A DNA stretch of 64,000 bases from an uncultured Bacteroidota bacterium (GTDB lineage Bacteria; Bacteroidota; Bacteroidia; Bacteroidales; P3): NCBI GenBank assembly GCA_902800395.1, contig CADCEC010000009.1, positions 10,488 to 74,487 of the forward strand, given 5' to 3'. The notes beneath the pieces were generated by a model that was not told the DNA's origin, did no database searches, and was given only the letters and a program-made list of their open reading frames with translations. The position numbers and the translations under genes are program-made. This document shows positions 391 to 63,509 of this stretch, piece after piece. Numbering within the stretch: the stretch's first letter is position 1; each line of letters begins with the position of its first letter.

Positions 391-1322
391 AAAAAAGAAC
401 AAAAATCATACTGGCTGTAATAGTAACTATAGTGGCTATAGTTGCTATAATCTCTATCCTTCTCCTCACCGCCAAAACCACGAACGCCGAGCCCCACCGC
501 ATCTTCCTTCCCGAGGGCACCTCCCAGGAAGCCCTCGTCGACACCCTCCATGCACAAGGCATCCTCGAGGAAGGTCTAAACACAAAGATTTTCAACTTTC
601 AATTCTCAATTCTCAATTCCAAAGTGCGTCCGGGGTCTTATATCATCGACCCCCACATGAGCGAGCTCACCCTCGTCCGCCGACTCCGCAACGGCCAGCA
701 GAGTCCCATACGCCTCACCATCGGCAAGTTCCGCACACCGGAGCAGCTCAACAACTATCTCAATGGCAAACTCATGCACAACGACTTCAACATCCCGCTC
801 GACAGTTTCCACCTCATCCGTCCCAACACCTACGAGTTCTACTGGACCATTACCCCCGAACAGTTTATGAAGAAAATGGAGAAAGAGTATGAACGGAAAA
901 AAGTCGATAAAGAAACCATTATATTAGCATCCATCGTCGAGGAGGAGACCAACCACAACCCCGAGAAGCCGCTGATTGCCAGCGTTTACCTCAACCGCTT
1001 GAAGCGCAACATTCCCTTGCAGGCCGATCCCACGGTGAAGTATGCCGTCGGCGACTTCACCCTTCAGCGCATCCTGAACCGTCACCTCGCTGTGGAGTCG
1101 TCCTTCAACACCTATCTCCACACCGGCCTGCCGCCGGCACCCATCTGTCTCCCATCCGACGCTTCTGTCGATGCCGTCCTCAACGCCCCTGAGACAGACT
1201 ATCTGTTCTTCTGTGCCAGCGACCAGATGGACGGCACCCACCGCTTCGCCACCACCCTCGCCGAGCACAACCGCAACGCCGCCGCTTTCCACCGTGCCCT
1301 CAATGCCCGCGGCATCAAATAA
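387..1322 (+). CDS. mltG: Endolytic murein transglycosylase MltG (YceG-like)
   Basis: N-terminal TM anchor MKKRTKIILAVIVTIVAIV. YceG motifs LQADPTVKY, NTYLHTGLPPAPIC and DYLFFCA. I prefer the ATG at 387 over the ATG at 354, which lies inside the upstream gene. Confidence 0.85.
   Translation: MKKRTKIILAVIVTIVAIVAIISILLLTAKTTNAEPHRIFLPEGTSQEALVDTLHAQGILEEGLNTKIFNFQFSILNSKVRPGSYIIDPHMSELTLVRRLRNGQQSPIRLTIGKFRTPEQLNNYLNGKLMHNDFNIPLDSFHLIRPNTYEFYWTITPEQFMKKMEKEYERKKVDKETIILASIVEEETNHNPEKPLIASVYLNRLKRNIPLQADPTVKYAVGDFTLQRILNRHLAVESSFNTYLHTGLPPAPICLPSDASVDAVLNAPETDYLFFCASDQMDGTHRFATTLAEHNRNAAAFHRALNARGIK
594..620. repeat. (AATTCTC)n mini tandem repeat, in frame in mltG (NFQFSILNS)
   Basis: aactttcaattctcaattctcaattcc. 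It is the reverse complement of the repeat at 5081. Confidence 0.8.
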
Positions 1323-1352
1323 TCAGCTCCGAACTGTTAAAAAAACCTAAAT

Positions 1353-1384
1353 CTGCATTCTCTGATGCAGCGTTTTTGCCTTTT
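1353..1384 (+). terminator. Weak hairpin plus T-tract after mltG
   Basis: CTGCAT-tctctg-ATGCAG followed by cgTTTTTgccTTTTg. Confidence 0.35.
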
Positions 1385-1409
1385 GTCCGTCTATATGGGT
1401 AAAAAAACG

Positions 1410-1417
1410 TATATTTG
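1410..1417 (+). promoter_or_regulatory. Bacteroidota -7 promoter box TATATTTG
   Basis: Matches TAnnTTTG, 36 nt upstream of the ATG at 1453. Confidence 0.5.
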
Positions 1418-1452
1418 CACTTTATTATAAACAGGAAAAAAAATATAAAATA

Positions 1453-4056
1453 ATGATAAACAAACGATTCTCACTCGCCATTCTCTTCCTTCTTTGTGGA
1501 AGCATGGCATTCGGCCAGCCTTCATTCGGCCCTAGCGACCCCAGCGACCCAATCGACTGCGGCGAATACCAGTGGCCTCTTGTGCAGTCGCCCTGTCCCG
1601 AGGTGCAGATCAAGCAGAAGCACGACCACACCCCCAAGCCCCAATACCGTCACTACGGCTGGGACACCGTCATCGACTGCAACACCCGTGACGGTATCGT
1701 CCTCTCCTGCACTCCCTACATCCCTGTGCAGTACTTCAATGGCCAATACACCGTCGATGAGATTCCTTACAACCCGCCTGACACCACCTTCTATCTTCAT
1801 TACAACGCGGCCATTGATGCCAATAACCCATACAAAGTAAAAATGCCCATTTCCACCGACGATGACTTTGCTGCATCCTCGACAAACATTCCATATCCAT
1901 TCTATTTCTTTGGTATCCGAAAAAACTATTTCCGTATTGGAGCCAATGGACTGGTCACTTTTACCACCAACTTCGGTTCTGGCACCTCCTGTCCATGGAG
2001 CTATAGCGCCGCTCTTCCTTGGACACCTACCACCACTCAAACTCCTAGCGACGGAGCCACCAGTGCTAATTTCAACCGAATGCATGATGCCATCTATGGT
2101 GTCTATGAGGACACTTATCCCAGCCCCTCCACCCACGGTTCGGCCGGCGACCCGAATTGGGGCATCTACTACGGAGTGCTTGACGAGTATCCTTGCCGAA
2201 AAATCATTTGCTCATGGAATGATGTGCCTCAGTTCAGCTGTACTACCCTACGCTGCACTTACCAAATCGTCTGCTACGAAGGTTCCAACATCATCGAGGT
2301 ACATGTCAAACAGCGTCAAGTTTGTTCCTCCTGGAACGGTGGCCACGGCATCATCGGCATCCAGAATGCCACAGGTTTACCTCAGGTGAATCCCAACGAT
2401 AACAATCCCAACCCTGATTATAACCTCCCCAACGCCAGCGTCATCACTGGTTCTCCCGCTGCTTTCTATCCTGTGGGATACAATACTTTCGAAACCTCTG
2501 TCAACAATGTCGCCTTCCGTTTCACTCCCCAAGGCAACACCTTTATGCGCTCCCAGTGGTACCGTATCTTCGATGACGGACGCGACTCCGTTGTCCTTCA
2601 GGAATACGACCCCATCAACAACCCTACTGCCGTCAACGACACCAACGGCTATGTCATCCCCATGGATCCCGACAACACCTCCTGTCCCACCCTTACCAAA
2701 GCCTACGTCAAGCCTTCCATCCCCTCCAAATATGTCTACTCCCTCCGTTTCAAGAACGCCAACGGCGACTGGTACCGTCTCTACGACACCATCTTCATCG
2801 GTATCGATACCCTCAACAACCTCTCCCTCATCAAGAACGAAACCGAGGGCGACCCGCATGTCTACACCATCTGTCAAGGAAACACTGCCATGATGAGTCT
2901 CCAAATGACCGACATCCAGGACACCCAGTTCGTGGAATGGCACATCTACCGCGAGCGCAACGGCGAGCAAGTGGAGATGGATAATCCCCGCTCTCTGCTT
3001 CGCTTCGGTGCCATGTCCACCATCGACACCATCAAGACACTCCCCATCACCCTCAACACCTCTATGCTGCCCTCTTCCGGCACACGCAACCAGATTGACA
3101 ACATTTATATCCGTTCCATTGTCGAGTTCACCAGCGGATGCCACAACAACGACCTCCTGCTCTTAAGCATCTATCCCAACTTCGACACCACTTTCTATGA
3201 TGGCATCTGTCAAAACGACACCTACACTTGGAACCCCACCGATACCTACGGACACTCCTACACCCATACCTACACCGAGCCTACCGACCCCGCCACCACT
3301 TTTGAGACGCTCACCTCCGTCCCTGGATGCGACAGTACCGTCCGACTCTCACTAGCGGTCTCCGACGTCTCCCACACCATCGACCATATCGAAGACTGCA
3401 AACCCATCGTCTGGCTTAACGGACAGACCTACTCCCAAACCAATACCGCCACCTCCGCCTCCGACACCGTCGTCCTTAAGAACCGCTACCAGTGCGACTC
3501 CGTCGTGCAGCTCGACTTCACCCTCTATCCCCTCACGGCCCAGTTGCGCTCCAACGTCGACCACTTCACCTTCGACAATCTCGACGCCGTGCTCACCGAC
3601 ATCTCCATCAACGGCAACAGCCGTGTGTGGAAACTTCCCGCCATGGCAGACCAAACCACTCCCACCGCATACTACTCCATCCCCGTGGAGATGGACGGCG
3701 CGGAGATTCTCCTCATCGAAAGTAGTGAATACGGCTGCGTCGACACCGCCAGCATCTACATCCCTCTCAACAAAGAGAACTTCTGGATACCCAATATCTT
3801 CACTCCCGACAATCCCAACGGCAACAACCGTTTCGGTTCCATCAGTACCAAGACACTGAACCAGGAGATGCTCATCTACAACCGCCGCGGCGAGCTTGTC
3901 TTCCGCTGCGAAGGTCCCGACTGCACCTGGGACGGTCGCGACCTCAACGGTAAACCCTGTGTCCAGGACGCCTACGTATACATTATCCGCTACGCCAACG
4001 AATTCGAGCCCCATAACACCAAAGTGGCCAAAGGCACCGTAACACTCCTGAGGTAA
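1453..4056 (+). CDS. Large secreted protein with a T9SS type-B (gliding-motility-associated) C-terminal sorting domain
   Basis: Signal peptide MINKRFSLAILFLLCGSMAFGQ. C-terminus IPNIFTPDNPNGNNRF...LIYNRRGELVF...WDGRDLNGKP...YVYIIRY...GTVTLLR. Confidence 0.8.
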   Translation: MINKRFSLAILFLLCGSMAFGQPSFGPSDPSDPIDCGEYQWPLVQSPCPEVQIKQKHDHTPKPQYRHYGWDTVIDCNTRDGIVLSCTPYIPVQYFNGQYTVDEIPYNPPDTTFYLHYNAAIDANNPYKVKMPISTDDDFAASSTNIPYPFYFFGIRKNYFRIGANGLVTFTTNFGSGTSCPWSYSAALPWTPTTTQTPSDGATSANFNRMHDAIYGVYEDTYPSPSTHGSAGDPNWGIYYGVLDEYPCRKIICSWNDVPQFSCTTLRCTYQIVCYEGSNIIEVHVKQRQVCSSWNGGHGIIGIQNATGLPQVNPNDNNPNPDYNLPNASVITGSPAAFYPVGYNTFETSVNNVAFRFTPQGNTFMRSQWYRIFDDGRDSVVLQEYDPINNPTAVNDTNGYVIPMDPDNTSCPTLTKAYVKPSIPSKYVYSLRFKNANGDWYRLYDTIFIGIDTLNNLSLIKNETEGDPHVYTICQGNTAMMSLQMTDIQDTQFVEWHIYRERNGEQVEMDNPRSLLRFGAMSTIDTIKTLPITLNTSMLPSSGTRNQIDNIYIRSIVEFTSGCHNNDLLLLSIYPNFDTTFYDGICQNDTYTWNPTDTYGHSYTHTYTEPTDPATTFETLTSVPGCDSTVRLSLAVSDVSHTIDHIEDCKPIVWLNGQTYSQTNTATSASDTVVLKNRYQCDSVVQLDFTLYPLTAQLRSNVDHFTFDNLDAVLTDISINGNSRVWKLPAMADQTTPTAYYSIPVEMDGAEILLIESSEYGCVDTASIYIPLNKENFWIPNIFTPDNPNGNNRFGSISTKTLNQEMLIYNRRGELVFRCEGPDCTWDGRDLNGKPCVQDAYVYIIRYANEFEPHNTKVAKGTVTLLR

Positions 4057-4082
4057 GAACCAAGAAATAAGAGGTAAGAAGT
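4050..4082. repeat. (TAAGAAC/TAAGAGG)n mini repeat filling the T9SS-gene/asd junction
   Basis: gaggtaagaaccaagaaataagaggtaagaagt. It includes the upstream stop and ends at the asd ATG. Confidence 0.8.
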
Positions 4083-5099
4083 ATGAAGATTGCTGTTGTT
4101 GGAGCCACCGGCCTTGTGGGCCGTGAGATGCTCACCGTGCTCTCTGAGAGAGGATTTGGAAAAGAAGAGATTATTGTCGCCGCCTCGCCGAAATCCATCG
4201 GCAAGAAGATAGACTTTGCCGGACGCCAGCTCTTCGTCGTCTCCGTCGACGACGCCATTGCCGCACGTCCCAACTACGCCATCTTCTCCGCCGGTGCGGC
4301 AGCCTCGCGCCAATATGCGCCACTCTTCGCCGCTGCCGGCACTACCGTCATCGACAACTCCTCGGCCTGGCGCAAAGACCCCACCATCCCTCTAGTGGTA
4401 CCCGAGATTAACATCGACACCGCAACTAACGCATTAACGCAATCAAGCAATAACGCTATCATCATCGCCAACCCCAACTGCAGTACCATCCAGATGGTCC
4501 TCGCCATCTCCGCCCTGCAACGCGAATATGGCATCCGCCGCATCGTCGTCTCCACCTACCAAAGCATCACGGGCACCGGCATCAAAGCTGTCCGCCAACT
4601 CGAGGCTGAAGAGCGAGGAGAGACTCCCGCAGAGATGGCCTACCCCTACCCCATCCACCGCAACCTCTTCCCCCATGGCGGCGACTGGCTCGACAGCGGC
4701 TACACCACCGAGGAGCAGAAGCTCGTCGACGAGACTCGCAAGATTTTCGGCGACCCCACCATCGCTGTCTCTGCCACCGTGGCACGCGTCCCCGTAGTAG
4801 GAGGCCACAGCGAGTCGGTGAATGTGGAGCTGAAAAAGGAATACGACCTCGACGACGTACGCCGCCTCATCGGAAACACCCCCGGTGTAGTGCTCTACGA
4901 CGACCCCTCTAACAACATCTATCCCATGCCCATCACCTCGCATCACCGCGACGAGGTCTTCGTAGGTCGCCTCCGCCGCGACCCCTCTCAGCCCTGCACC
5001 CTCAACCTCTGGGTCGTGGCCGACAACATCCGCAAGGGTGCTGCCACCAACGCCATCCAGATTATGCAAGAACTTATCAAATTGAAAATTGAGAATTGA
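4083..5099 (+). CDS. asd: Aspartate-semialdehyde dehydrogenase
   Basis: MKIAVVGATGLVGREM NAD-binding fold and the active-site region IANPNCSTIQMV. Length is typical, apart from a repeat-derived insert at 4425-4456. Confidence 0.9.
   Translation: MKIAVVGATGLVGREMLTVLSERGFGKEEIIVAASPKSIGKKIDFAGRQLFVVSVDDAIAARPNYAIFSAGAAASRQYAPLFAAAGTTVIDNSSAWRKDPTIPLVVPEINIDTATNALTQSSNNAIIIANPNCSTIQMVLAISALQREYGIRRIVVSTYQSITGTGIKAVRQLEAEERGETPAEMAYPYPIHRNLFPHGGDWLDSGYTTEEQKLVDETRKIFGDPTIAVSATVARVPVVGGHSESVNVELKKEYDLDDVRRLIGNTPGVVLYDDPSNNIYPMPITSHHRDEVFVGRLRRDPSQPCTLNLWVVADNIRKGAATNAIQIMQELIKLKIEN
4425..4456. repeat. (TAACGCAT)-type 8-nt repeat, in frame in asd (TNALTQSSNNA)
   Basis: actaacgc attaacgc aatcaagc aataacgc. 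Confidence 0.8.
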
Positions 5100-5104
5100 G
5101 AATT
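5081..5104. repeat. (ATTGAGA)n repeat spanning the asd stop and ending at the next ATG
   Basis: attgaaaattgagaattgagaatt. A TGA recurs every 7 nt. Confidence 0.85.
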
Positions 5105-7458: not shown

Positions 7459-8003
7459 AAAAGAATATTTTTCTTGCAGTCACTTCTCTTCTGTTCCTGA
7501 CCGCTTGCGCCAACCAAGGACATAATACCGACAACGACGGTACCGTCGAATTTCGCTCACCTAAAGGCGACATCGTGGCCATCCGTACCATCAAAGGTTC
7601 CGACACCACATGGGCTTTCAACAATGCCCTCGGCGAATCCCTCATCCCCGGCACTGACTCCCTCTGGGTCATTGCTGACACCACCAACGGTCAGCCCAAA
7701 GAAGTCATCTTCTTCCACAAAGGGCAACAGACCATGCTCTCATTCTGGGACAACATGGAACGTATGGCAGAAGGCGACCTTGTGGATGGGCTCCGTCACG
7801 GCCGCTGGACGGGCTATGAACGCAATACCGGCAGGAAACAGTCAGAGACCGACTACAGCCTCGGACTGGAAAACGGTTCCTACACCGTCTACAACTACAA
7901 CGGTACTCCACGCATCGTCGGACAGTACGTCGACGGAAAAGAGACTGGCGAATGGTCGTTCTACGACCAGGATGGCAACCTCGCCGGCACCAAACAATAC
8001 TAA
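7455..8003 (+). CDS. Lipoprotein with MORN-variant (YwqK-type) repeats
   Basis: Lipobox FLTAC. Repeats GLRHGRWTGYE, NGSYTVYNYNG and GKETGEWSFYDQDGN. ATGA overlap with uvrC. Confidence 0.7.
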   Translation: MKKNIFLAVTSLLFLTACANQGHNTDNDGTVEFRSPKGDIVAIRTIKGSDTTWAFNNALGESLIPGTDSLWVIADTTNGQPKEVIFFHKGQQTMLSFWDNMERMAEGDLVDGLRHGRWTGYERNTGRKQSETDYSLGLENGSYTVYNYNGTPRIVGQYVDGKETGEWSFYDQDGNLAGTKQY

Positions 8004-8026
8004 CTCATTAACGCATTAACGCATTG
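8001..8026. repeat. (TAACGCAT)n 8-nt repeat between the MORN lipoprotein gene and the CCA enzyme gene
   Basis: taactcat taacgcat taacgcat tg. The first TAA is the upstream stop codon, and the TTG start follows directly. Confidence 0.85.
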
Positions 8027-9526
8027 ATCACCGATCTCTATCCTGAACTCGGCCACATCATCGGCACGGAAGCCGACCGCATGGGTATCGACGCCTATTT
8101 CGTGGGCGGCGTTGTGCGCGACCATTTCCTCCAGCGCCCCTGCACCGATATCGACATCGTCTGCGTAAACAGAGCGGAAAGTGGAAAGTGGCACCCCGAA
8201 GGGGAACTGAACACCATGGAAAAGAAAAACAATGTAGTGAAGAAAGTGGAAAGCGGAGAAGTAAGCATCGGTATCGAACTGGCCCATGCCGCTGCTAAAG
8301 CCCTTGGCGGCAGCAAAGTCTCCGTCTTCAAAAACTTCGGCACCGCCTCCTTCCGTCATAACGACCTCGAGCTCGAATTCGTAGGAGCACGAAAAGAAAG
8401 CTACTCCCACAACTCCCGCAAGCCCATCGTAGAGAACGGCACCCTAGAGGATGACCAGCGGCGACGTGACTTCACCGTCAACGCGCTGGCAGTGTGTCTA
8501 AATGAGGAGCACTTCGGCGAACTCATGGACCCTTTCGGCGGCATCCAGGACCTCAACGCCGGTATCCTTCGCACACCCCTCGACCCCGACATCACCTTCA
8601 GCGACGACCCACTTCGCATGATGCGTGCCATCCGCTTCGCCTCGCAGCTGGGATTCCGCATCGCCGACGACACCTTCGAGGCTATCACCCGCAACGCCAA
8701 ACGTATCGAGATAGTCTCCATGGAACGAATCGCCGTGGAGCTCAACAAAATCATGCTCTCCCCCACTCCTTCCCTCGGCCTCAAACTCATGCAGAAATGT
8801 GGCCTCATGCAGCTTATCCTCCCCGAAATCTCCGCCCTCGCCGGAGTAGAAACCGTTGACGGACGAGGCCACAAAGACATCTTCTATCACACCATGCAAG
8901 TGCTTGACAACGTAGCCGCCTTTAGCGGCAACGTGTGGCTCCGTTGGGCCGCCCTACTGCACGATGTCGGCAAGCCTGGCGTGAAGCGCTACGACCCCAA
9001 GCAGGGCTGGACATTCCATGGCCACGAGGCCCGCGGTGCCCACATGGTGAAGCGTATCTTCAAGCGCCTGCGCCTGCCGTTGGGCGAAGAGATGCGCTAC
9101 GTCGAGAAACTCGTCATGCTCCACATGCGCCCCATCATCCTCGCCGAGGATGTCGTCACCGACAGCGCCGTGCGCCGCCTCCTCTTCGAGGCTGGCGACG
9201 ACATCGACGACCTCATGCTACTCTGCAACGCCGACATCACCACCCGCAACGAAGAGAAGCAGCGTCGCCATCGCGCCAACTTCGAGTTGGTGAAGCGCAA
9301 ACTCGTCGAACTCGAAGAGCGCGACCGCATCCGCAACTTCCAGCCTCCCGTCTCAGGACAGGACATCATGGACACTTTCGGCATCGGCCCTTGCCGCGAA
9401 ATAGGCACCATCAAGGACGCCATCAAGGACGCCATCCTCGATGGCCAAATCCCCAACGACCGTGCCGCTGCCTGGCAAATGATGCTCGACATCGCCGCCA
9501 CACTAGGTCTAAAAACCAAAGAATGA
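8024..9526 (+). CDS. CCA tRNA nucleotidyltransferase / poly(A) polymerase family protein with HD domain
   Basis: YFVGGVVRD...DIDIV nucleotidyltransferase head, RRDFTVNALA, and HD region LLHDVGKP. The only plausible start is TTG at 8024, because a TAA lies at 8009 in the same frame. Confidence 0.85.
   Translation: MITDLYPELGHIIGTEADRMGIDAYFVGGVVRDHFLQRPCTDIDIVCVNRAESGKWHPEGELNTMEKKNNVVKKVESGEVSIGIELAHAAAKALGGSKVSVFKNFGTASFRHNDLELEFVGARKESYSHNSRKPIVENGTLEDDQRRRDFTVNALAVCLNEEHFGELMDPFGGIQDLNAGILRTPLDPDITFSDDPLRMMRAIRFASQLGFRIADDTFEAITRNAKRIEIVSMERIAVELNKIMLSPTPSLGLKLMQKCGLMQLILPEISALAGVETVDGRGHKDIFYHTMQVLDNVAAFSGNVWLRWAALLHDVGKPGVKRYDPKQGWTFHGHEARGAHMVKRIFKRLRLPLGEEMRYVEKLVMLHMRPIILAEDVVTDSAVRRLLFEAGDDIDDLMLLCNADITTRNEEKQRRHRANFELVKRKLVELEERDRIRNFQPPVSGQDIMDTFGIGPCREIGTIKDAIKDAILDGQIPNDRAAAWQMMLDIAATLGLKTKE
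8174..8262 (+). repeat. Composite insert in the CCA enzyme gene, bounded by two (GGAAAGT)n copies
   Basis: gcggaaagtggaaagtgg (8174-8191) and gtgaagaaagtggaaagcggagaagt (8237-8262) flank 45 nt that contain a ccccgaagggg hairpin. Confidence 0.7.
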
Positions 9527-9557: not shown

Positions 9558-9565
9558 TAATTTTG
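9558..9565 (+). promoter_or_regulatory. -7 promoter box TAATTTTG (crt-hbd)
   Basis: TAnnTTTG upstream of the ATG at 9618. Confidence 0.5.
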
Positions 9566-9570
9566 CAGTC

Positions 9571-48370: not shown

Positions 48371-48382
48371 GGATTTAATGGG

Positions 48383-53893: not shown

Positions 53894-54364
53894 ATGACGA
53901 AAGAAGATAAATATGCCGCCCTGCTGCCGCAGGTGAAAGCCCTCTGCGAGGGAGAAGAGGATATCATCGCCAAGATGGCCAACGTCAGCGCCCTGCTGCA
54001 CCAGGAATTTGCCTTCTGGTGGACTGGATTTTACCGCGTCGTGGGCAACGAGCTGCTACTTGGGCCTTTTCAAGGTCCCATTGCCTGCGTGCATATCGCC
54101 TATGGGCGAGGCGTCTGCGGCACAGCGTGGAAAGAGCATCGCACCGTGGTGGTGCCCGACGTGGAGGAATTTCCCGGACATATCGCCTGCAGCAGCGAGA
54201 GTCGCAGCGAGATTGTAGTGCCCGTGTTTAAAGTGGAAAGTGGAAAGCGGAAAGTGGAAAACAAGGAGGTCATTGCCGTCCTGGACATCGATAGCCGCGA
54301 ACTAGCCACTTTCGACGACATCGACGCCCGATGGCTCGAGCAAATCGTCAAACACATCCCCTGA
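53894..54364 (+). CDS. GAF domain protein (free methionine-R-sulfoxide reductase-like)
   Basis: WTGFYRV...LLGPFQGPIAC..I.YGRGVCG and SEIVVP...VLDIDS. Carries one (GGAAAGT)n insert. Confidence 0.8.
   Translation: MTKEDKYAALLPQVKALCEGEEDIIAKMANVSALLHQEFAFWWTGFYRVVGNELLLGPFQGPIACVHIAYGRGVCGTAWKEHRTVVVPDVEEFPGHIACSSESRSEIVVPVFKVESGKRKVENKEVIAVLDIDSRELATFDDIDARWLEQIVKHIP
54230..54262 (+). repeat. (GGAAAGT)4 repeat, in frame in the GAF gene (KVESGKRKVEN)
   Basis: aaagtggaaagtggaaagcggaaagtggaaaac. Confidence 0.9.
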
Positions 54365-54373: not shown

Positions 54374-55063
54374 CTACTCAAAACGGTATCCCACCAACAA
54401 TGAAACCTTATAGGGATAGACGTATGTTCCCGGCGTCTCAAGATTGAGGATATCCGTAATGCCCATACGGGCATCCAGTTGCAACTGCCACTTGTTTTCG
54501 AATTCATAGCCCACCGCCAGCGCGACACCGGCATGGATGTCGCTCAATGCGAAACGGACCTTGCCGGTAACGGGGTCGGTATATACCTGCCGCCGATAGA
54601 GATTGATACCCTCGTCGACATACGAATAAAAAACGAAATGGCAGAAGGGAGCCACCGAGAAGAAAAGGTTCCCCGAAGAGATCGGAACACGATAGATTAC
54701 AGGCAACGAGAAGTCTGTTCCCATCGTGAGCATGTAACTGCGGTGAGTGGAAAAACTAAGGGTGGTGCAGTCCATCCCCAAACGACCGTTGAGCTGCACA
54801 CTCCACCGGCGGGTGATGTGGTACTCGAAGAAAGCCCCTATGTCGACACCCACACCGGGGGTGGCGCTAAGAAGAGAGTCCATAATAAGGGTGTCGCGCA
54901 GCAAGGGATCCACACGCATGACAAAAGACGAGATATTGCCTCCTCCTTGAAGCCCCCAGCTGATAGTCTGCCGATGGTCGTCATCGTCGCCCCACACCTC
55001 CGTCTGCGCATAGACCGAATTGAAAAAAGAAATTATCGCGACAAGAACAAATACCCTCTTCAT
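54374..55063 (-). CDS. Outer-membrane beta-barrel (porin family) protein
   Basis: Signal peptide ending VYAQ, alternating beta-strand pattern, and aromatic C-terminus ...VGYRFE. Confidence 0.65.
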   Translation of the reverse strand: MKRVFVLVAIISFFNSVYAQTEVWGDDDDHRQTISWGLQGGGNISSFVMRVDPLLRDTLIMDSLLSATPGVGVDIGAFFEYHITRRWSVQLNGRLGMDCTTLSFSTHRSYMLTMGTDFSLPVIYRVPISSGNLFFSVAPFCHFVFYSYVDEGINLYRRQVYTDPVTGKVRFALSDIHAGVALAVGYEFENKWQLQLDARMGITDILNLETPGTYVYPYKVSLLVGYRFE

Positions 55064-55097
55064 AACTATTATCTATTAACTATCATCTATTAACTAC
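55064..55097. repeat. (TATCTATTAACTAT)n 14-nt repeat filling the DUF5686-gene/OMP-gene spacer
   Basis: aactattatctattaactatcatctattaactac. Confidence 0.85.
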
Positions 55098-55098: not shown

Positions 55099-57738
55099 TT
55101 ATAGCTGGAACTTCAGGTCGATACGAATAAACCAACGCTCGTCGGTAGGAAGACCCTCGAGATAACTTAAGCGACGCACATAGTCGACTCGAAGGAACTT
55201 GAGGATATTCTCAATACCGATGCTATACTCCATATAAGGCGTGGTGCCAAAAGCTTTGGTGTCCGGGGGAAATTGGTAGAGTCCCACGGGATCATTCATC
55301 GGGTTGTTTTTAGGGCTCAATCCTCCATAGAGGATATTGAATCCTACCACTTCCCGCAAACGAAGTCTGTTGATGAGCGGTATTCGGTTGAGTATCCATC
55401 CTTTCAAATGGTAGGTAGCATAGAAGGCTACCCATTGGTCCATAATGAACTCCATGGGTTTCATGGTGTTGAAGGCCGACGAGGAAAGGAAGAGTCCTGT
55501 ATTGCCGCTGGGGATGTAGAGCCGCGGATAGGGAACACGGTTCCAAACCACTCCGGAGACCAGCTTGGCGTCGATATGCCCGAAAGAGGAGAGCCAGAAT
55601 CGCTTCTCCGCCGAGAAATCGGTACGGTGGAACAATGTGGCACCGTCAAACATGGCTACCGTGTGACTCAGATTAATGGTGGGGGCGTCACGTCGCAACG
55701 ACGACTGCTTCTCGCGTCTACGCGTACCCGAGACGAAATTGGGCGTAAAACTCAGACTGCCAGTCCATTCGGCTTCCGTGAAGAAATCAACATCCCGCAG
55801 CGTGCCGTCAGGCTGATACTGAAGGTACTGCAGCAATCCCGCAGGCTCATATCGCCGCGCTGCCACCCAGGTGTCGAAGCGCAGATGGCTGCGCCATTCC
55901 TTACGCAACCTCAGCACTGCTTGCGTCACATATTGCACTTTCTTCGGACTCTCCGTCGACGACAGGATGTTGTCGCGGTCGAAGTTGTCGTAGGCCTGGC
56001 CGGGAGTTTCCAACTCATAACCCGCCATCAGACTCAGACTGCTGTAAGGTCCTTCATGCGAATGACGTTCCTTGTCATCGAAAGTATACGTATAAGTGGA
56101 ACTGAATTTGGGACGCTGGTCACGGAAGCCGTAGGCCAAATAACCCTCCCAGAAATGGCGCGGACTGAGTTTTGCTTTCGTCATACCGCCCACGCGCACT
56201 CGCCAGCCTTCTTCATGGTTGTGACTGAGGAAGTTGTATACAGGTCCAAAGTCAAAACGGCTCTCCTTGCGCTCTTTCCTGGTGGAGATGTAGCCGCTGA
56301 CAAGCACTTCGCCGGTGCGCTTGATGAACTGAAACTCTGGCAGGCGCTCCAGCTCCACCCACATGCTGTCGAGCACCGTCTCCTTGGCGCTGAGTTTCAC
56401 AGGACGCACGGCGTTGAACTCGCTCTTGTAGCGCGTCATCTTATCCTTCGGCAGCGACGCCTCGTGCTCAAAAGCCGAAAAGAGACTGTCGGGCAGCATT
56501 TCCGCCGTATCACTCAGGTCGTAGTTCGTGTATACTCGCATCTGGTGTACATAGAGCTCCTGGATGTGCTTCGAGATATACATCCGACCGTAGGTATCAC
56601 ATCTATAGGGAAGATAACGTCTCGTCACACTGTCCTTGTGGAATGTCTGCACAATGGTTAGGTCGCGTACAAAGTTCAGGTTCACCTTGGGCGACACCGC
56701 CAGCACATACTTCGCCACAGCGAAAGAGCTGTCTGCATCTAGCGCCACATACATCCTCCCCGTGAAACCATAGCTCTGCTCGTTGGCCGGCACGAAACTG
56801 AGCTCCACACATTTCTGTCCGTCGACAAAAGTGGTGTCAGTAATATAGTATTTGTAGTAGGTAACAGCCATAAACGAGGAGAGTGGACTGACAAAATGAT
56901 TCAGCATCAATTCGATGTCTCCGTCATAGATATCTACGGGCATAAACATCGCCTCAATGTTGGCATCCAACCCCTCATCGCTGAGCACCTCATCGAGGCC
57001 CTCCATGCGTTTTCCCGTCAACAGGCGGCGGCGCTGACTGGGTTTCTGCCTATAGCTCTCCTCGGCTAGATACTCTCGCATCGATACCACCAGTATAGGT
57101 GTGGCATCAAAGGGGGTCTCGTCGATATATTTCTCCAGAAAATCAAGTTTACGCCAAAACCAACTATTCTCGAAGTCGGGATCGAAATCGTCGAGCGACA
57201 TCGAGAGCCTCTCGTAAGCATCTCTTCGCCATTGCGGTGCACCGTCCAGACGGTTCTCCTCCTTGTGGGCTATCACCTTTTCCACAAGTTCCACAGCGGG
57301 ATTGTGCCTCCGCGAATACTTCCCACTACCCTTCTTCGCCGTCACCTCCACAGCCTTCAACGTCTGCCCCTTGGGTACCAGCTTCACCGTCGCTCGCTTC
57401 TTCGTCTTCCCACGCTGCAACTTCATCTTCTGCGGCTCATAGCCCATCATGCGGAAACTCACGGTGGTGTAACCCTGCTCGTTGCTGATGCTGAACTTGC
57501 CGTCCATATCTGTCTCCGTACCCACGGTGGTACCATCGAAGACTATCTGCACAAAGGGTATCGGTTCGTTCGTCTCTGCATCCACCACCTTGCCCTTCAG
57601 CGCCGTCGTCGCACTCTGCGCCTGAACACTTGAAAAATGAAAAATGAAAAATGAAAAAACAAGGAATGAAAGGATGCGAAAGGCAACTATTGTCCTTTCA
57701 CTCCCTTTCACTCCTTTTTCACTCCCTTTCACTCCCAT
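55099..57738 (-). CDS. Carboxypeptidase-regulatory-like domain plus DUF5686-like large outer-membrane protein
   Basis: LKGKVVDAETNEPIPFVQIVF.GT.VGTETDMDGKFSI followed by a long beta-rich region. The N-terminal ~36 codons are repeat-derived, so the start is uncertain (ATG 57738 or a GTG 27 nt downstream). Confidence 0.7.
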   Translation of the reverse strand: MGVKGSEKGVKGSERTIVAFRILSFLVFSFFIFHFSSVQAQSATTALKGKVVDAETNEPIPFVQIVFDGTTVGTETDMDGKFSISNEQGYTTVSFRMMGYEPQKMKLQRGKTKKRATVKLVPKGQTLKAVEVTAKKGSGKYSRRHNPAVELVEKVIAHKEENRLDGAPQWRRDAYERLSMSLDDFDPDFENSWFWRKLDFLEKYIDETPFDATPILVVSMREYLAEESYRQKPSQRRRLLTGKRMEGLDEVLSDEGLDANIEAMFMPVDIYDGDIELMLNHFVSPLSSFMAVTYYKYYITDTTFVDGQKCVELSFVPANEQSYGFTGRMYVALDADSSFAVAKYVLAVSPKVNLNFVRDLTIVQTFHKDSVTRRYLPYRCDTYGRMYISKHIQELYVHQMRVYTNYDLSDTAEMLPDSLFSAFEHEASLPKDKMTRYKSEFNAVRPVKLSAKETVLDSMWVELERLPEFQFIKRTGEVLVSGYISTRKERKESRFDFGPVYNFLSHNHEEGWRVRVGGMTKAKLSPRHFWEGYLAYGFRDQRPKFSSTYTYTFDDKERHSHEGPYSSLSLMAGYELETPGQAYDNFDRDNILSSTESPKKVQYVTQAVLRLRKEWRSHLRFDTWVAARRYEPAGLLQYLQYQPDGTLRDVDFFTEAEWTGSLSFTPNFVSGTRRREKQSSLRRDAPTINLSHTVAMFDGATLFHRTDFSAEKRFWLSSFGHIDAKLVSGVVWNRVPYPRLYIPSGNTGLFLSSSAFNTMKPMEFIMDQWVAFYATYHLKGWILNRIPLINRLRLREVVGFNILYGGLSPKNNPMNDPVGLYQFPPDTKAFGTTPYMEYSIGIENILKFLRVDYVRRLSYLEGLPTDERWFIRIDLKFQL
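57631..57736. repeat. (TGAAAAA)4, then an inverted pair of (GTGAAAGG)-type blocks, forming the first ~36 codons of the DUF5686-like gene
   Basis: tgaaaaatgaaaaatgaaaaatgaaaaaac; ggaatgaaaggatgcgaaagg; cctttcactccctttcactcctttttcactccctttcactccc. Confidence 0.85.
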
Positions 57739-57741: not shown

Positions 57742-60700
57742 TTATTTAAATGCATTCTCACTCAGTCCATGTCCGCTCAGCGCAAGGTCTTTCATGTAGC
57801 CCGGCACCTCACGGCCGAGGTACTTGTCGACATACAACTTGGCAAGATACTGGCCCAGCATGAATCCGTGTCCACGCAAACCCGTCAAGAGGCCCACTTC
57901 GGGGTCGACGATGTAGCGCGGCTCGGTGTAGCGACCCGCCCAGCAGGCCAGGAAGCTGACATCCTTGAGGCTGGGCAGCCATTCGGCAAAGACCTGGCTG
58001 ACAATTTCGAGGAACTCTTTGCTGTTGTACTTGATGTTCTGACGCGTCTCGTAGGCGTCGGTGTCGGGGCTGGCGCAGCCGATAATCTGGCCAGTGTGCT
58101 CGAACTGCTGTCCGTAGACGGCGCTGAAGCCCTTGTAGTGGCGACGGTCGATAATCATATCCAGCGGGCCGCCGTTGGGTCCCATCATAGGCAGGCGGCG
58201 TGTGATGAAGGCCTGGTGCTTCACGGGATAGAGGCCGGTGTCGATGCCCAGCATATCGGTGAACTTCTCGGCACCCCAGCCCATGGCGTTGACGAAATGG
58301 CCGCAGGTGTACTCGACATACTTGCCCTCGTGATTGCGTACCAGTGCGACGACCTTGTCGCCCTTGCGCCAAACGCTGAGCAGCTCGGTGTCCTCGTAGT
58401 AGCGGCCACCGAGGCTCACGCCGATACCGCGGATATAATCGATGACGCGACCCGGCGTAGCCTGCCAGCAGTCGCGCGTAATCAACGCGTGGCTGTATGT
58501 GTCGCGCGTGTCGTCCCACAGCGGCGAAATCTCTTTCTTGAAATCCTTGCGGTCAATCATGTAGGCGTCGCTCCAAGCGCGGCTGGCATCGAGGGCTTTA
58601 TAGGTAGCCTCGTCATGCACTAGATTGACATAGTGCGTGGGCTTATAGTTGATATTGTGTACTTTCTGTATGCCTTTGAAGATTTCGTGGCTGTGCTGTG
58701 CGATGTCGGCGATATCGGGATTCGAGAATGCCGGACGGCCGCCGCCGATATTCCTCCACGAGGCACCGCGGCTCCAGTTCACCATCACGGGCTTCATACC
58801 TGCCTCGCTGAAGTAGCGGAACAGGCCACTGCCCGCAATACCGCCGCCAGCAATGAACACCTTCACCTCCTCCTTCTGTACGTCGTTGCCCTTCGGGAAG
58901 ACATACACCTCCTTACGGCCTTCAGTGTAGACATCACCGAGCGACACCTGGTTGCTCAGCGGCGCGCGTGGAGTGGCGTCGCCGGTGAGCTCTATGCCGT
59001 GGGCTTTCAGCACTCCGCGGGCGCGGGCAATGCAGCGCTTTCCGCGGCAGGGACCCATACCCATGCGGGTGATGTGCTTCAGCTCGTCGACAGAGATATA
59101 CTTGCGGTCGCCCACAACCTCCAGCATCTGCTCCTCGGTGATATCCTCGCAATGGCAGATGTAAGTAGGCTCTTTCTGAGCATTCTGAGTATTCTGAGTA
59201 TTTAGACCACTTGGATATTTCTCTTTCACAATAAATCCCTTCACATCGGTCATCTGGCCGTCGACTTGAGCGACGAAGACGCGTGCCACATTGGTCTTGT
59301 TGTCTTTCTTGAGCACCTTCTCCACCTTGCCCTCGCCAATCTTCTTTCCGTTGTTGTCCACCAACCACACCTCGGCACCGTCCTCCACCTCGTACTCGAT
59401 GGGCAAAAAACACCAGTTCTTCGCCATATCGTAGCCAAATATAGCCAGGCCGGGGCAGTGGTTCACGCAGGCCATACAGCCGATGCACTTGTTGTAGTCC
59501 ACCGTCGGCGTACTGCTGGTAGTGGGCTTGCTGATGGCACCCTGCGGACAGCTGAAAGTACAGGGATTGCAGGCGAAGCCGTAGAGGCAGTCCAGCTGCA
59601 CGAAAGGCTTCATCGCCATGCGCTCCGGAGTGGGCAGGTTCGGCTTCTCCAGCAGACGGATGGGGTGCTGCTGCGAGTCGATATACTGGCGCGAAATGTC
59701 GAGATACTCGTCGTAGTTGAAACGAATGGCGAGTTCCTGGGCAATCTCGTAGGCAGCCTGCTTGCCACGCAGCACAGCGCTGGTGCCCTCGCCAATCCTC
59801 ACCGCGTCACCCACACCGTAGACATGATGCCCAAAGAGTTCCTTACCCTTGGTCAGCAGCTGGTTGTCGGGCACCAAGCCGGTGCAGATATTGATGATGT
59901 CGATATCGTCTATCACCTGCTCGGTGCCGGGGATAGGCTTGAAGTTCTCGCACTTGGCAATGACGGCGCCCGTGATGCCGGTATACTTTTTATTAGGTAT
60001 CGCACGCACCAGCGTGTAGCCCGTCATGATGGGGATGCCGAGTCGGCGCACACGGTTGGCCTGCACCGGGAAGCCACCCTCGCGGGGCATAGCCTCGATG
60101 ATGGCCTTGATGGTGGCTCCGGCCTGCATGCCCTGATACGAGGTCAGGTAGCCGATATTGCCGGCACCCACCGTCAGCACCCGCTTACCCAACAGCGTAT
60201 GCTCCTGATTCATCATTTTCTGGAATACGGCGGCGGTGTAGACACCCGGCACATCGTCGTTCTCGAAAGCCGGCATGAATGGTACGGCACCCGTGGCCAC
60301 CACGAGGAACTGGGCATCCACGTAGGCCATCTCGCTGGTAATGATATTCTTTATCGCAATACGCGGACCCTCCAGCAGGTCCCACACCGTATTGTTCAGC
60401 AGTATGCCCTCCTGATTGTCACCGGCCAATGTCTTTGCAATATCGAAGCCACGCATGCCGCCGTATTTCTTCTCCTTCTCGAAGAAGAAGAACTGGTGTG
60501 TCTGCATGTTGAACTGGCCTCCGATACGGCCGTTGTTGTCGATGACAAGGTTGTCCACCCCGAAAGCATTCAGCTGCTCGCGGCAAGCCAATCCCGCAGG
60601 ACCGGCTCCGATGATGGCTACGGTGGTCTTATAGATAGTCAATGCACTTTCAGCCTGCGACTTGGCAGGAGCATCAAATGTAACACCCGGCAGGTCAGCC

Positions 60701-60993: not shown

Positions 60994-61072
60994 GTAATGT
61001 TTAACGTTTATCGGTTAAGGGTTAATGAGCGAAGTGATTGATTCTTAATTCCTAATTCTCAATTCTCGATTC
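60994..61072. repeat. Two adjacent repeat blocks in the oxidoreductase/ypfJ divergent region
   Basis: gtaatgtttaacgtttatcggttaagggttaatgag, then attcttaattcctaattctcaattctcgattc. Confidence 0.7.
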
Positions 61073-61154
61073 GCAAAGCCAACCACAAAAGTAATCATCT
61101 TTTTTGACAAATGCAAGAAAAAAATCAAAAAGTTGTCGGAATGTTTTTTTTTCG

Positions 61155-61162
61155 TATCTTTG
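61155..61162 (+). promoter_or_regulatory. -7 promoter box TATCTTTG (ypfJ)
   Basis: TAnnTTTG, 30 nt upstream of the ATG at 61192. Confidence 0.5.
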
Positions 61163-61191
61163 CATTTTAGAATTTTTTTAACCTTCATATT

Positions 61192-62049: not shown

Positions 62050-62068
62050 GCGGTTTACAATAAACAGC

Positions 62069-62108
62069 TAGCGGTTAGCCCCTGGATAATCCAGCCTGCT
62101 AACCGCTA
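62069..62108. terminator. Long hairpin between convergent ypfJ and the OMP gene
   Basis: TAGCGGTTAGC...GCTAACCGCTA with inner stem CTGGA/TCCAG, followed by TTTGTTATTTGTT. Confidence 0.6.
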
Positions 62109-62175
62109 TTTGTTATTTGTTCTGCCTGCTTGCAGACTTTGAGCTCCGCTGAATTAAATTAAATCCTGCGAAAAA

Positions 62176-62209
62176 CTGTTATCTATTAACTATTATCTAT
62201 TAACTATCA
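62176..62209. repeat. (TATCTATTAACTAT)n 14-nt repeat overlapping the OMP gene stop
   Basis: ctgttatctattaactattatctattaactatca. Confidence 0.85.
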
Positions 62210-63454
62210 TTCCCCCACCGGGTAGCGGTAGCGGGTACTATTGCTGCCAAAGTTGTAGATGTAACCCACGGTGATGCTGGGCAAACCGCCCCAATCGCCA
62301 TAGGCTTTCGGCAAGTCCTCTCCGGCCTCGGGCCGGATGCCGGCAATGGTGGGCGGGACCATCATGTATTTAGCGTCGAGATAGATGTCACTGTGATGGC
62401 CGAGGTAATAGCGGAACATGATGCCTATATCGGCCGTCATGTTGAAGGTGAGTTCATCGTAGCGCCAGATGAGTCCTGCACCGAGGTAAGGCAACACATT
62501 GAGGCGCACGCCACGGGTGAATCTGACAAGGTGTGTCAGGTTCACCATCACATCGGTATGGAAGTTGGAATAGGAATATTTCTCACCCGGACGGCTCTCA
62601 ACGGTGTCGTAGGGCTCGTGCGCCGTAAGTCCACTGAGTTCGAAGCGGATAGTCCATACATTGCTGTAGTTGCGGCCGAACTGAATCTCGGGAGTGACAC
62701 CATACATTCCCCATTCACCGAGATTACGAAACGAGAAGGAGGAGAAGTTGGCACCAATACCGAGACCCACCCACCAGTCTTCGGCAGTACTGCGCGAGGA
62801 GAACTCGGTCTTGCGGGTGAAGGGGTTGTCGGACCAACGATGAGTGACACCGAGGGTGATAGAGTGCATGTAGTTGTTATTGGCGCTACCGTCGAAATAC
62901 TGCGAGAGGAAGAACCACTTATACTCGAGGAAAGCGTCCCAAAGGGGTGCGATGCGGACGGGAAAATGAAGTCCCAACATAGCCTGGAAGTCGTCATCAG
63001 ACTTGTGGGTGACACCCGCTGCCGTCACCGACGGACGGATGACCATACCCACACCCAGCATGGGATAGACGGGGAAGGGCTTGAGAATGGTGCCGTTATA
63101 GACATGGAAGAAGGTGGCATTGACATCCCAGATGAATTCTGCGCTCCCCATGAAGTACATGGAGTTGTCGCTGCCCCCGTTCTGCCAATGGCTGGGCGTC
63201 ATCATCATGTCGAACCCGAAGCGGAACGCCAGCGGGCGCGTAATCCAACATCCCAAGTTAAGGGTGGCGGTGGGCACAGAGAACTGCCCCTCGCCAGAAT
63301 GCTGATAATAGACGCCACCGACTCCCAACGACAGGAACCACGGATCGTCTCCGGTCCTTTTGTAGCTCTGAGCCTGAACTTGGGAAGGCAAGAGGTAAGA
63401 ACCAAGAACTAAGAGGCTGACACATAATATTTTTTGCATTTTGGTCTGTTTCAT
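62207..63454 (-). CDS. Hypothetical outer-membrane beta-barrel protein
   Basis: Signal peptide ending QVQAQ and an aromatic/Gly-rich alternating pattern. No family recognised. Confidence 0.5.
   Translation of the reverse strand: MKQTKMQKILCVSLLVLGSYLLPSQVQAQSYKRTGDDPWFLSLGVGGVYYQHSGEGQFSVPTATLNLGCWITRPLAFRFGFDMMMTPSHWQNGGSDNSMYFMGSAEFIWDVNATFFHVYNGTILKPFPVYPMLGVGMVIRPSVTAAGVTHKSDDDFQAMLGLHFPVRIAPLWDAFLEYKWFFLSQYFDGSANNNYMHSITLGVTHRWSDNPFTRKTEFSSRSTAEDWWVGLGIGANFSSFSFRNLGEWGMYGVTPEIQFGRNYSNVWTIRFELSGLTAHEPYDTVESRPGEKYSYSNFHTDVMVNLTHLVRFTRGVRLNVLPYLGAGLIWRYDELTFNMTADIGIMFRYYLGHHSDIYLDAKYMMVPPTIAGIRPEAGEDLPKAYGDWGGLPSITVGYIYNFGSNSTRYRYPVGE
63391..63418. repeat. (TAAGAAC)-family copy read in antisense as the signal-peptide core (SLLVLGSYLLP)
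   Basis: agaggtaagaaccaagaactaagaggct. It shares gaggtaagaaccaagaa with the locus at 4050. Confidence 0.7.
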
Positions 63455-63475
63455 AATTCCAAATTAATTAATTAT

Positions 63476-63509
63476 TACTTCTTAGTTCTTACTTCTTAGT
63501 TCTTAGTTC
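63476..63509. repeat. (CTTAGTT)n repeat from the OMP gene leader into the tig stop codon
   Basis: tacttcttagttcttacttcttagttcttagttc. Confidence 0.85.

Follow-up and report, generated by a model that had tools for sequence, protein, structure and literature searches.

The 64,000-nucleotide stretch of DNA analysed here (the window; contig CADCEC010000009.1), which comes from an uncultured bacterium of a rumen Bacteroidales clade, carries about one strong tandem array of a short unit per 2 kb, both at gene junctions and in frame within ordinary genes. The observation is real and well beyond chance. We consider it probable that the arrays are simple-sequence elements of the kind called short tandemly repeated repetitive sequences (STRR) or long simple sequence repeats (LSSR), built mostly of 7-nt AT-rich units, and that they behave as self-propagating DNA and are not protein features. 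Comparison with related contigs shows that they are recent, lineage-specific additions, and in one instance a 51-nt segment was copied from one array into another.

Density and recurrence of the arrays

The window has a GC content of 54.6% and is about 95% coding, with ordinary genes that include those for GldH, two type IX secretion system (T9SS) CHU_C proteins, DUF5686, the Rnf operon, Asd, UvrC, DnaG and TatA/TatC; the arrays are AT-rich. Proteins identical to those of the window occur in metagenome assemblies of bovine rumen and gut, and the only annotation of homologues is 'Bacteroidales bacterium'. Tandem Repeats Finder (TRF), run over the whole window at a score of at least 30, returned 75 rows that merged into 60 loci, against 8.4 ± 3.5 loci in 30 dinucleotide-preserving shuffles of the window. 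Period-7 loci numbered 26 (0.9 in the shuffles, maximum 4), and loci scoring at least 40 numbered 34 (1.1 in the shuffles). A weak class of about 25 of the 60 loci, with scores of 30–39, contains many cases of about two copies of a 9- or 12-nt unit within genes; these loci are individually near the chance level and should not singly be counted as part of the phenomenon. Below, the coordinates of an array are followed by its strand, and arrays were called by TRF unless another basis is given.

Period-7 loci hold 2–5.4 copies, further loci have units of 8–14 nt, and at least eight families, those longer units included, coexist in the window. The same units recur at dispersed places, GGAAAGT at six to seven loci and TAAGAAC at five. 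Among 24 heptamer consensus units, six have the canonical form AAAGTGG (equivalent to GGAAAGT) and three AACTAAG (equivalent to TAAGAAC), and 21 identical-unit pairs were observed where 0.68 would be expected for random units of the same base composition, a number reached in none of 20,000 simulations. Exact identity was used here in place of single-linkage clustering of units at up to one mismatch, which was dropped as too permissive for AT-rich units (12 pairs expected at random).

The original prediction, made from the letters of the window, had listed repeat coordinates that all carry the family assigned to them, including three (8237, 46996 and 63391) that are too short or degenerate for TRF and are visible in the sequence. 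Its expectation that repeat density and family recurrence exceed those of composition-matched shuffles holds far above chance. No transposase or integrase domain was found among the 56 open reading frames (ORFs) of the window, as had been claimed. It was also right that the arrays are not CRISPR arrays, as the units of 7–14 nt are contiguous without spacers and the window ORFs contain no cas domains. The Rfam search that it had proposed (Rfam 15, gathering threshold) matched no array, the sole match in the window being a tRNA-Met at 29128–29204.

Comparison with strains and relatives

Contigs from other samples are 99.9–100% identical to the window, and two of them (L002 and L003) terminate exactly at arrays, at window positions 37147 and 40448–40449. 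Same-strain short-read contigs thus stop exactly at arrays, which act as assembly breakpoints. Over the 11.3 kb covered at 98.0% identity by contig L004, every array has the same copy number, the sole exception being a 51-nt insertion, and the CCA-like protein is 500 aa long in 10 of 10 variants of 98–100% identity. Array copy number is therefore stable in the short term among strains of 98–100% identity, and the arrays are not hypermutable contingency loci: no copy-number difference, as expected of phase-variable loci, was seen in the 11.3 kb at 98% identity or in the 99.9–100% identical contigs.

In L006, a syntenic contig of 76% identity, most of the window arrays are missing and its own arrays stand at other places. 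Families of the window occur elsewhere in this contig, CTTTCACTCC in mltG, gldH and uvrC and TAAGAAC after the stop codon of the CCA-like gene. The few arrays that are orthologous between the two are those in mltG and asd. The former, (AATTCTC)n with 4.6 copies, encodes residues 79–89 ('FNFQFSILN') of MltG/YceG (588–619, +) and, being present at 76% identity, is an old array. The latter, 4.4 copies of an 8-nt unit (TAACGCAT/TCAAGCAA), lies in a surface loop of Asd at residues 113–126 (4421–4461, +), and its units have changed in concert within each genome (CTCAAGCA twice and ATCAGGCA twice in L006). L004 and the window also differ by a strain-level indel: at about 11260–11456 of the window, L004 (13250–20336) has, between miaA and the 3-hydroxyacyl-CoA dehydrogenase gene, a block of about 7 kb that the window lacks and that contains genes for TetR, an OEP/efflux system and ABC transporters, and at this site L006 has the TetR gene only.

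The 120 best homologues of the CCA-like protein (74–100% identity) have a 475-aa baseline without inserts and reach lengths of up to 541 aa, and this variation is made up of different repeat-encoded peptides at the same three loops. The HemW-like protein (120 orthologues) repeats this result, with one old array site and a further three or four that are hypervariable and differ among relatives in having arrays unrelated to one another; among these hypervariable sites is the (TTTCAAT)n array of 4.3 copies at residues 164–174 (27413–27442, −). The old site, common to many relatives, is occupied in the window by a perfect (GGAAAGT)n array of 4.1 copies that encodes 'VESGKWKVES' (27842–27870, −). 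The corresponding segment has the same length in all 120 relatives, so that the array adds no length, and it decays gradually among them from VESGKWKVES through VGSGQWAVGS to PVGTQRVASA. That the window copy is still a perfect array at an old site suggests ongoing homogenisation, and together with asd it shows that the units within an array evolve in concert.

At the nucleotide level, the inserts of relatives typically consist of a pair of heptamer arrays in inverted orientation, separated by a short loop of unrelated sequence, as with (CAGTTGG)n...(CCAACTG)n in contig L128, and are palindromic insertions in frame in conserved protein genes, in the manner of Rickettsia palindromic elements. 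An ancestral small hairpin (GGTGAAAGCTCACC) at loop 3 of the CCA-like protein appears to have been expanded in place in L128. The original prediction had stated that the blocks lack terminal inverted repeats. This is accurate for most window arrays, which are single-armed, but not for the tatA–tatC junction, where an inverted pair of GGAAAGT arrays (44316–44400, −; TRF and folding) has one arm that encodes the TatA C-terminus and another that takes up the spacer and stops 3 nt short of the tatC AUG; the arms (44316–44347 and 44367–44400) form an RNA hairpin of −34.2 kcal/mol (z = −4.8). In the relatives, inverted arrays are the rule among in-gene inserts.

These comparisons show that the arrays are recent and lineage-specific: in the ancestral state the gene pairs overlap or are separated by short spacers free of repeats, and the proteins are without inserts.

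Copying between arrays

The sole indel between the window and L004 in their aligned part is the 51-nt insertion at 8191–8241 (+; absent in L004), which lies in a GGAAAGT array of the CCA-like gene, between a left part in the head domain of the nucleotidyltransferase (8176–8190, +; from alignment with relatives) and a right part (8242–8262, +; from alignment with L004). This cargo adds 17 aa (HPEGELNTMEKKNNVVK) to the protein and is 100% identical to sequence in the recG–GNAT spacer 8.2 kb upstream (L004 1900–1950; 5109–5159 of a further contig, L131). The donor is also flanked by GGAAAGT-like units, and the shared patch extends over 78 nt at 97.4% identity. While the window strain holds both donor (on L131) and copy, L004 has the donor only, and the window contains no other copy of the cargo besides the insert. 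The 17-aa insert is present in 10 of 10 CCA-like protein variants from ENA, NCBI and JGI. As the outgroup proteins are short, the event is best read as a duplicative, homology-guided insertion that added 17 residues to an enzyme loop. The cargo starts with a small perfect palindrome (CCCCGAAGGGG, 8192–8207), and its reading frame at the recG–GNAT donor (MEKKNNVVKKV...) is the frame translated in the CCA-like protein.

A second case comes from contig L127, where a composite of about 95 nt, (CAGTGNN)n-(CTACCCA)4-CTAAAYATACCAC, is present in three copies within 5.8 kb that are 91–92% identical, one in a NUDIX gene and two in loops of the CCA-like gene. The copies share a non-periodic segment too, which independent slippage cannot produce. 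Within the window, a 31-nt stretch with the variant unit GAAGTAA, in the same unit order, is common to 53862–53892 and 63479–63509. Arrays of the same family have thus been copied into each other, and a composite element has been copied as well.

The original prediction attributed the blocks to a DNA-level process and not to protein-level selection, and this attribution is supported. The 7-nt unit is not a multiple of three, and its families are common to coding and non-coding sites; the CCA-like orthologues of baseline length do without inserts while relatives of 74–96% identity carry different arrays at the same three loops; and one templated copying event between two arrays was caught directly.

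Placement at gene junctions

Of the 2,976 intergenic bases, 16.2% lie in arrays scoring at least 40, as against 1.14% of the coding bases, a 14-fold enrichment. The earlier estimate that about 20 junctions are filled by such blocks is close for the 18 of 44 non-overlapping gene junctions that have an array, but only 13 spacers are array over at least 50% of their length. In most of these junctions the array includes the stop codon of the upstream gene, and it typically reaches the next start codon or comes within a few bases of it. A 7-nt unit with a stop codon gives stops in all three frames after three copies, which explains where each unit can live: the stop-bearing TAAGAAC, TAAGAAT, TAACGCAT and TAGTTAATAGATAA types sit between genes, and coding copies of arrays occur only in stop-free frames. 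This positional and stop-codon pattern fits selective filtering.

The TAAGAAC family illustrates this anatomy. Five copies of this type take in the TAA stop of a T9SS protein gene and the 26-nt spacer to the asd ATG (4053–4088, +), where L006 has a 12-nt non-repeat spacer instead; 4.4 copies cover the meaB TAA stop and the whole spacer to the hemW-like start (27935–27965, −); 5.4 copies cover the fucosidase C-terminus together with the TAA that ends this gene and the spacer before the ATG of the GAF gene (53855–53892, +); and five copies of (TAAGAAC/TAAGAAG)n include the TAA stop of a 120-aa gene and part of the spacer to a gene for an outer membrane protein (OMP)-like product (63468–63509, −). 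Other heptamers behave in the same way, with (TAAGAAT)n (4.4 copies) filling the spacer between a usp gene and a SPOR gene (26364–26394, +), (TAATTCC)n (4.6 copies) taking in the rnfB stop and the whole spacer to rnfC (24376–24407, −) and (GAGAATT)n (3.7 copies) the last six asd codons, the TGA stop and the spacer to the gldH ATG at 5105 (5079–5104, +; absent in L006). An (AATTCTC)-type array of five copies occupies a divergent spacer (61041–61076, no strand).

Junctions with longer units are similar. Among 8-nt arrays, (TAACGCAT)n (3.1 copies) holds the TAA stop of a MORN-like gene and the spacer to the CCA-like gene (8001–8025, +), two genes that overlap without an array in L006; TCAAGCAA (4.1 copies) lies in the leader of an enoyl-CoA hydratase gene (9576–9608, +); and five copies of an 8-nt unit take up the whole stretch between the stop codon of rnfD and the start of rnfG (21974–22015, −). 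The 9-nt arrays fill the spacer between a GNAT gene and an aminotransferase gene (TCAGAATAC, 3.7 copies; 34251–34283, +) or lie directly upstream of an aldo-keto reductase start (CCCATTAAG, 2.6 copies; 45958–45980, −), a single copy of the latter unit being found at 48371–48382. Two 11-nt arrays, both without strand, lie in a convergent spacer (AAGAGGGGAGT, 3.5 copies; 11349–11386) and in a spacer of 165 nt (TGTTTAACCAT, 3.1 copies; 42988–43021). Of the 14-nt units, AGAATTAAGAGTTA (2.1 copies) includes the TAA that ends atoE and fills the spacer up to the ATG that follows (40421–40449, −), where two independent contigs break; AGTTAATAGATAAT (2.4 copies) includes the DUF5686 TAA stop and the whole spacer to an OMP ATG (55063–55096, −) and occurs again with 2.4 copies in a convergent spacer, where it directly follows the OMP-like gene's TGA (62174–62207, −), this array being 94% identical to 55064–55096; and a degenerate family (TAGTTAATAGATAA) lies between the polyferredoxin stop and the yitT start (46996–47022, −; by sequence inspection).

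Placement within genes

GGAAAGT is free of stop codons in all six frames, and it is found in frame in five proteins (HemW-like, GNAT-HD, GAF, CCA-like and TatA), always as the cyclic peptide (V)ESGKWKVES. In GNAT-HD it is a perfect array of 4.4 copies with the same 'VESGKWKVES' as in the HemW-like protein (37145–37175, +), at which an independent assembly contig breaks, and in the GAF protein 4.4 copies encode 'VESGKRKVEN' (54230–54260, +). Three signal peptides owe their hydrophobic core to T-rich units, namely those of a SPOR protein ((ATTTTTA)n, 4 copies; 26419–26447, +), of DUF5686 ((TTTTTCA)n, 4 copies, 'FSFFIFHFS'; 57631–57658, −) and of the OMP-like protein, where a TAAGAAC-type array in antisense encodes 'LLVLGSYLL' (63391–63416, −; by sequence inspection). 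The first 15 codons or the leader of DUF5686 consist of a 10-nt array (GGGAGTGAAA, 4.2 copies; 57694–57736, −), a family that L006 also has in mltG, gldH and uvrC.

Besides the one in the Asd loop, further in-frame arrays are found in inter-domain linkers. That of the sigma-54 activator carries (CTACCCA)n (4.6 copies, 'YPLPTTHYPL'; 13740–13774, −) and holds different arrays in L006 and L130; that of DnaG carries (CCGACCT)n (5.3 copies) followed by a 9-nt array (AGAGTACTC, 7.3 copies; 15316–15415, −) and is non-repetitive in L006; and that of a 1081-aa oxidoreductase carries a 9-nt array (TACTCAGAA, 3.2 copies, 'NTQNTQNAQ'; 59174–59202, −). DnaG has in addition a 7/8-nt array that encodes 'SGDKETGDK', a 7-aa insert relative to L006 (16161–16194, −), and AtoE a 9-nt array of 3.3 copies ('DTKDIKDTKD'; 41103–41132, −). 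The claim that the blocks lie in frame in otherwise conventional genes is thereby confirmed for MltG, Asd, the CCA-like enzyme, the sigma-54 activator, DnaG, HemW-like, GNAT-HD, AtoE, TatA, GAF, DUF5686 and the 1081-aa oxidoreductase; with the signal peptides of the SPOR, OMP-like and DUF5686 proteins, the total comes to about 15 ordinary genes.

GC-rich terminator-like inverted repeats, such as GGGGTCAAGGTGTACACCTTGACCCC and GCGGCCCACAGTACCTCTGTGGGCCGC, occur in longer spacers (11270–11310, 16830–16870, 33915–33950, 45990–46020 and 62055–62105) and differ from the AT-rich arrays. Motifs like the Bacteroidota −7 element (TAnnTTTG, e.g., TATATTTGCA and GTATCTTTGCA), which fit the phylum, stand upstream of operon-initial genes (1404–1420, 9560–9570, 30480–30500, 49235–49250 and 61160–61175). 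Long shadow ORFs lie opposite the genes for the sigma-54 activator (13542–14756 / 13818–14372), RnfE (20755–21354 / 20789–21397) and acyl-CoA dehydrogenase (30806–31957 / 30944–32083), and naive longest-ORF gene calling takes the wrong strand at these three places.

Proposed mechanism and alternatives

We propose that the arrays would grow by slipped-strand mispairing, and that inverted pairs may also lengthen via out-of-register hairpins. Spread and homogenisation would proceed by short-patch templated repair or gene conversion, with the arrays themselves serving as homology arms. Selection would then purge all copies outside tolerant places, so that units bearing a stop codon (TAAGAAC, TAAGAAT, TAACGCAT, TAGTTAATAGATAA) would survive only between genes, and stop-free units or orientations (GGAAAGT, AATTCTC, CTACCCA, TTTTTCA) would survive in surface loops, inter-domain linkers and signal peptides. 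As a secondary and less certain part of this reading, arrays at junctions may serve Bacteroidota as A-rich leaders of little structure, co-opted for translation that does not depend on Shine-Dalgarno pairing, and inverted pairs such as that at tatA–tatC may act as intra-operon hairpins.

Several points weigh against this model. The events caught are one inter-array copying and one composite family, and seeding at a virgin site was not observed. The homology arms of about 13–15 nt are short for RecA-dependent exchange, and neither target-site duplications nor defined ends are visible at the three L127 copies or in comparisons of filled and empty sites. Furthermore, the orientation bias and the low-structure leaders described below fit a functional element equally well, and the ORF-based orientation calls are heuristic, with many loci uninformative or ambiguous.

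A regulatory explanation has the most to recommend it among the alternatives, although we regard it as unlikely. The arrays would then primarily be cis-regulatory RNA, offering heptad binding sites or a standby platform to the 30S subunit, to ribosomal protein S1 or to some other protein that binds RNA; they would set downstream translation in a lineage without Shine-Dalgarno pairing, and the recurrence of units would reflect selection for a shared regulator. In line with this, positions −30 to −1 of 12 genes are spanned by an array, which in most cases continues as far as the start codon. The leaders of these genes are A-rich on the sense strand (46% A vs 28% T), but the other leaders in the window already have 39% A. 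Folding of the start region is weaker in the array leaders (−2.7 vs −5.5 kcal/mol, p = 0.008), yet among their arrays some are rich in pyrimidines or fold into a hairpin that covers the start region. Stop-containing families tend to be sense-oriented: TAAGAAC-type intergenic loci are so in 11 of 12 informative Bacteroidales loci, which alone were used because calls in high-GC phyla are ambiguous from shadow ORFs, and loci of the TAGTTAATAGAT family in metagenomes are sense-only in 45 cases and antisense-only in 16. A similar case has been argued for TAACTGA repeats (MacGregor 2015, PMC4679880), and a Nostoc preprint reports expression effects on deletion of heptamer repeats. However, array positions are unconserved between relatives of 76% identity, which speaks against a regulatory role that is essential, numerous unit families without relation to one another are present together, and the same families are found in convergent and divergent spacers and in coding loops. 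The orientation bias and low leader structure also fit arrays born at stop codons and then filtered for ordinary Bacteroidota leaders.

It is rather less probable again that the arrays are non-autonomous transposable elements, moved by an enzyme acting in trans in the manner of miniature inverted-repeat transposable elements, REPINs or Rickettsia palindromic elements, with heptamer arrays as arms and single arrays as decayed halves. The two-armed hairpin inserts in the loops of relatives, the tatA–tatC pair in the window and the three L127 composites in two genes speak for this, and in-frame insertion in housekeeping genes resembles the Rickettsia elements. Against this, there are no target-site duplications or conserved termini, the loops between the arms are unrelated from locus to locus, and the majority of arrays in the window have a single arm and a length of only about 30 nt. 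The 56 window ORFs, being free of transposase and integrase, include no cognate transposase or RAYT, and the one event caught looks like a homology-guided patch copied into an existing array and not like an insertion at a new target.

About as doubtful, and if anything slightly more so, is the idea that a dedicated, unrecognised machinery writes or moves the arrays and hairpin composites, for instance a hairpin-recognising HUH/RAYT-like nuclease or a templated-synthesis repair enzyme for which arrays are landing pads. If true, Bacteroidales would have a counterpart of their own to the Rickettsia palindromic elements, one that continually remodels the loops of essential proteins and operon junctions, and it would supply the long-missing mechanism behind STRR-type repeats in general.

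Purely local replication slippage, by which each array would be independent and the families would reflect a mutational or compositional preference, is very improbable. Papers citing Mrázek (2007) relay that heptanucleotide repeats are the commonest class of long simple sequence repeats in many bacteria and that polymerase slippage was proposed for them; heptamers of the same composition as TAAGAAC are nearly as common in a viral-contig collection (7–8 vs 15 stretches), and the hairpin at loop 3 was seemingly expanded in place in L128. Nevertheless, the 21 identical-unit pairs exceed the expectation by far, and slippage as the sole mechanism is already contradicted by the composites whose non-periodic sequence is common to several loci, by the identical order of variant units over 31 nt and by the exact 51-nt cargo copied over 8.2 kb. 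An artefact of metagenomic assembly or sequencing can practically be dismissed, for although the ends of short-read contigs of other samples coincide exactly with arrays, identical sequence was recovered by assemblies made independently from several samples, reading frames stay open across arrays in about 15 genes and all ten protein variants carry the 17-aa insert.

Relation to described repeats

The original prediction did not recognise the blocks as a described element class, but heptanucleotide tandem repeats have already been described (STRR, LSSR, GGGAATC, GGGGAYT and TAACTGA), and the window arrays share with the STRR, LSSR and TAACTGA types tandem short units, dispersed recurrence, an intergenic bias with stop overlap and loci that are unconserved between relatives. 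STRR were reportedly described in heterocystous cyanobacteria by Mazel in 1990, and Mrázek is said to have defined in 2007 the 'long simple sequence repeats' of 5–11-nt units, dominated by heptamers. GGGAATC repeats are known from Xanthomonas and GGGGAYT repeats from Nostoc, inverted pairs included (Rehm 2015, PMC4692102). Like STRR and heptameric LSSR, the window has several heptamer families per genome, a strong intergenic excess and occasional inverted pairs, and length and sequence vary between close species, for which slippage has been proposed in those systems. In contrast to their G-rich or taxon-specific units, those of the window are different, AT-rich at 54.6% GC and found in another host phylum; their density is very high (34 strong loci in 64 kb), and they are used systematically in frame in housekeeping proteins.

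The closest match is to the direct repeats of the heptamer TAACTGA that are found in marine Beggiatoaceae, in some cyanobacteria and in five Bacteroidetes (MacGregor 2015, PMC4679880). Forward copies of TAACTGA stand immediately upstream of start codons, where they overlap the stop codon of the upstream gene and close each of the three frames, and copies in reverse are tolerated within ORFs; the repeat is missing from the same junction in neighbouring species, and the mobilising mechanism is not known (PMC4679880). The window arrays are likewise made of 2–6 tandem heptamer copies at many dispersed loci, with the same stop- and start-abutting anatomy. Unlike TAACTGA, which is one dominant unit with related heptamers rare, they belong to at least eight families that include 8–14-nt units, and whereas TAACTGA copies in ORFs are mostly at protein ends or in hypothetical proteins, here they are in internal loops of Asd, DnaG, HemW and the CCA-like enzyme. 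The TAACTGA paper reports neither inverted two-armed inserts nor an inter-array copying event, both of which were found here.

Two further systems are instructive. Rickettsia palindromic elements are reportedly conserved families of 100–150 bp, described by Ogata in 2000, that lie in frame in ordinary protein genes, are translated and occur in multiple copies per genome. The likeness, drawn by description only, is that palindromic or hairpin DNA lies in frame at surface-tolerant protein positions; here, however, it is built of tandem heptamers, most window arrays are single-armed and no sequence relationship is expected. The tandem repeats of Borgs are similarly pervasive between and within genes, fast-evolving and the source of low-complexity protein segments, and their in-gene units are said to be multiples of 3 nt. 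The window arrays differ in having a period of 7 and in the recurrence of the same units at many loci, while the repeat regions of Borgs are reported to arise independently (PMC9879509).

Heptamer arrays also occur far outside the clade. In L141, a metagenome contig of an unrelated organism with 35% GC, a (TAGTTAA/TAGATAA) array stands directly before a long (GTGGAAA)n array, so that heptamer units of the window are side by side elsewhere too. Four 8-kb loci of genomes from other phyla (L054, L008, L069 and L119; Holophagae, Acidobacteriota, Niastella and others), which were found through their (TAAGAAC)3, have 9–12 tandem-repeat loci per 8 kb. Heptamer-saturated genomes may thus be widespread and under-described, in a sample that is biased because each locus was selected for an array. 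Exact (TAAGAAC)3 occurs in at least 120 GTDB stretches from Planctomycetota, Acidobacteriota, Bacteroidota, Verrucomicrobiota, Cyanobacteria and others. Its interpretation as a conserved element or as horizontal spread across phyla was rejected, since the control heptamers TACAAGA and TAGACAA are only about two-fold rarer (7 and 8 vs 15 stretches in the viral-contig collection) and its occurrence across phyla is therefore background and not a signature.

Implications

The heptamer repeat class as such is already described; what is new or different here is its density, the number of families, the inserts in housekeeping genes, the copying event that was caught, the two-armed hairpin composites reminiscent of Rickettsia palindromic elements and the host, an uncultured rumen Bacteroidales clade. 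In practical terms, the arrays break short-read assemblies and inflate length variation among orthologues, and they give unrelated proteins the same peptides, VESGKWKVES for example, by which searches for homologues and the annotation of domains can be misled.

Knowledge of heptanucleotide families in bacteria goes back to the STRR work of 1990, and their origin, spread and function are still unexplained. A specialist would not be astonished by heptamer repeats in themselves, but this clade is unusually clean material on how such repeats move. It offers a natural experiment, with hundreds of close metagenomic strains, many families per genome and gains in essential genes. With at least one copying event for which both donor and recipient are identified, the movement of the arrays, its rate and its dependence on a repair or transposition gene become testable by comparative genomics.

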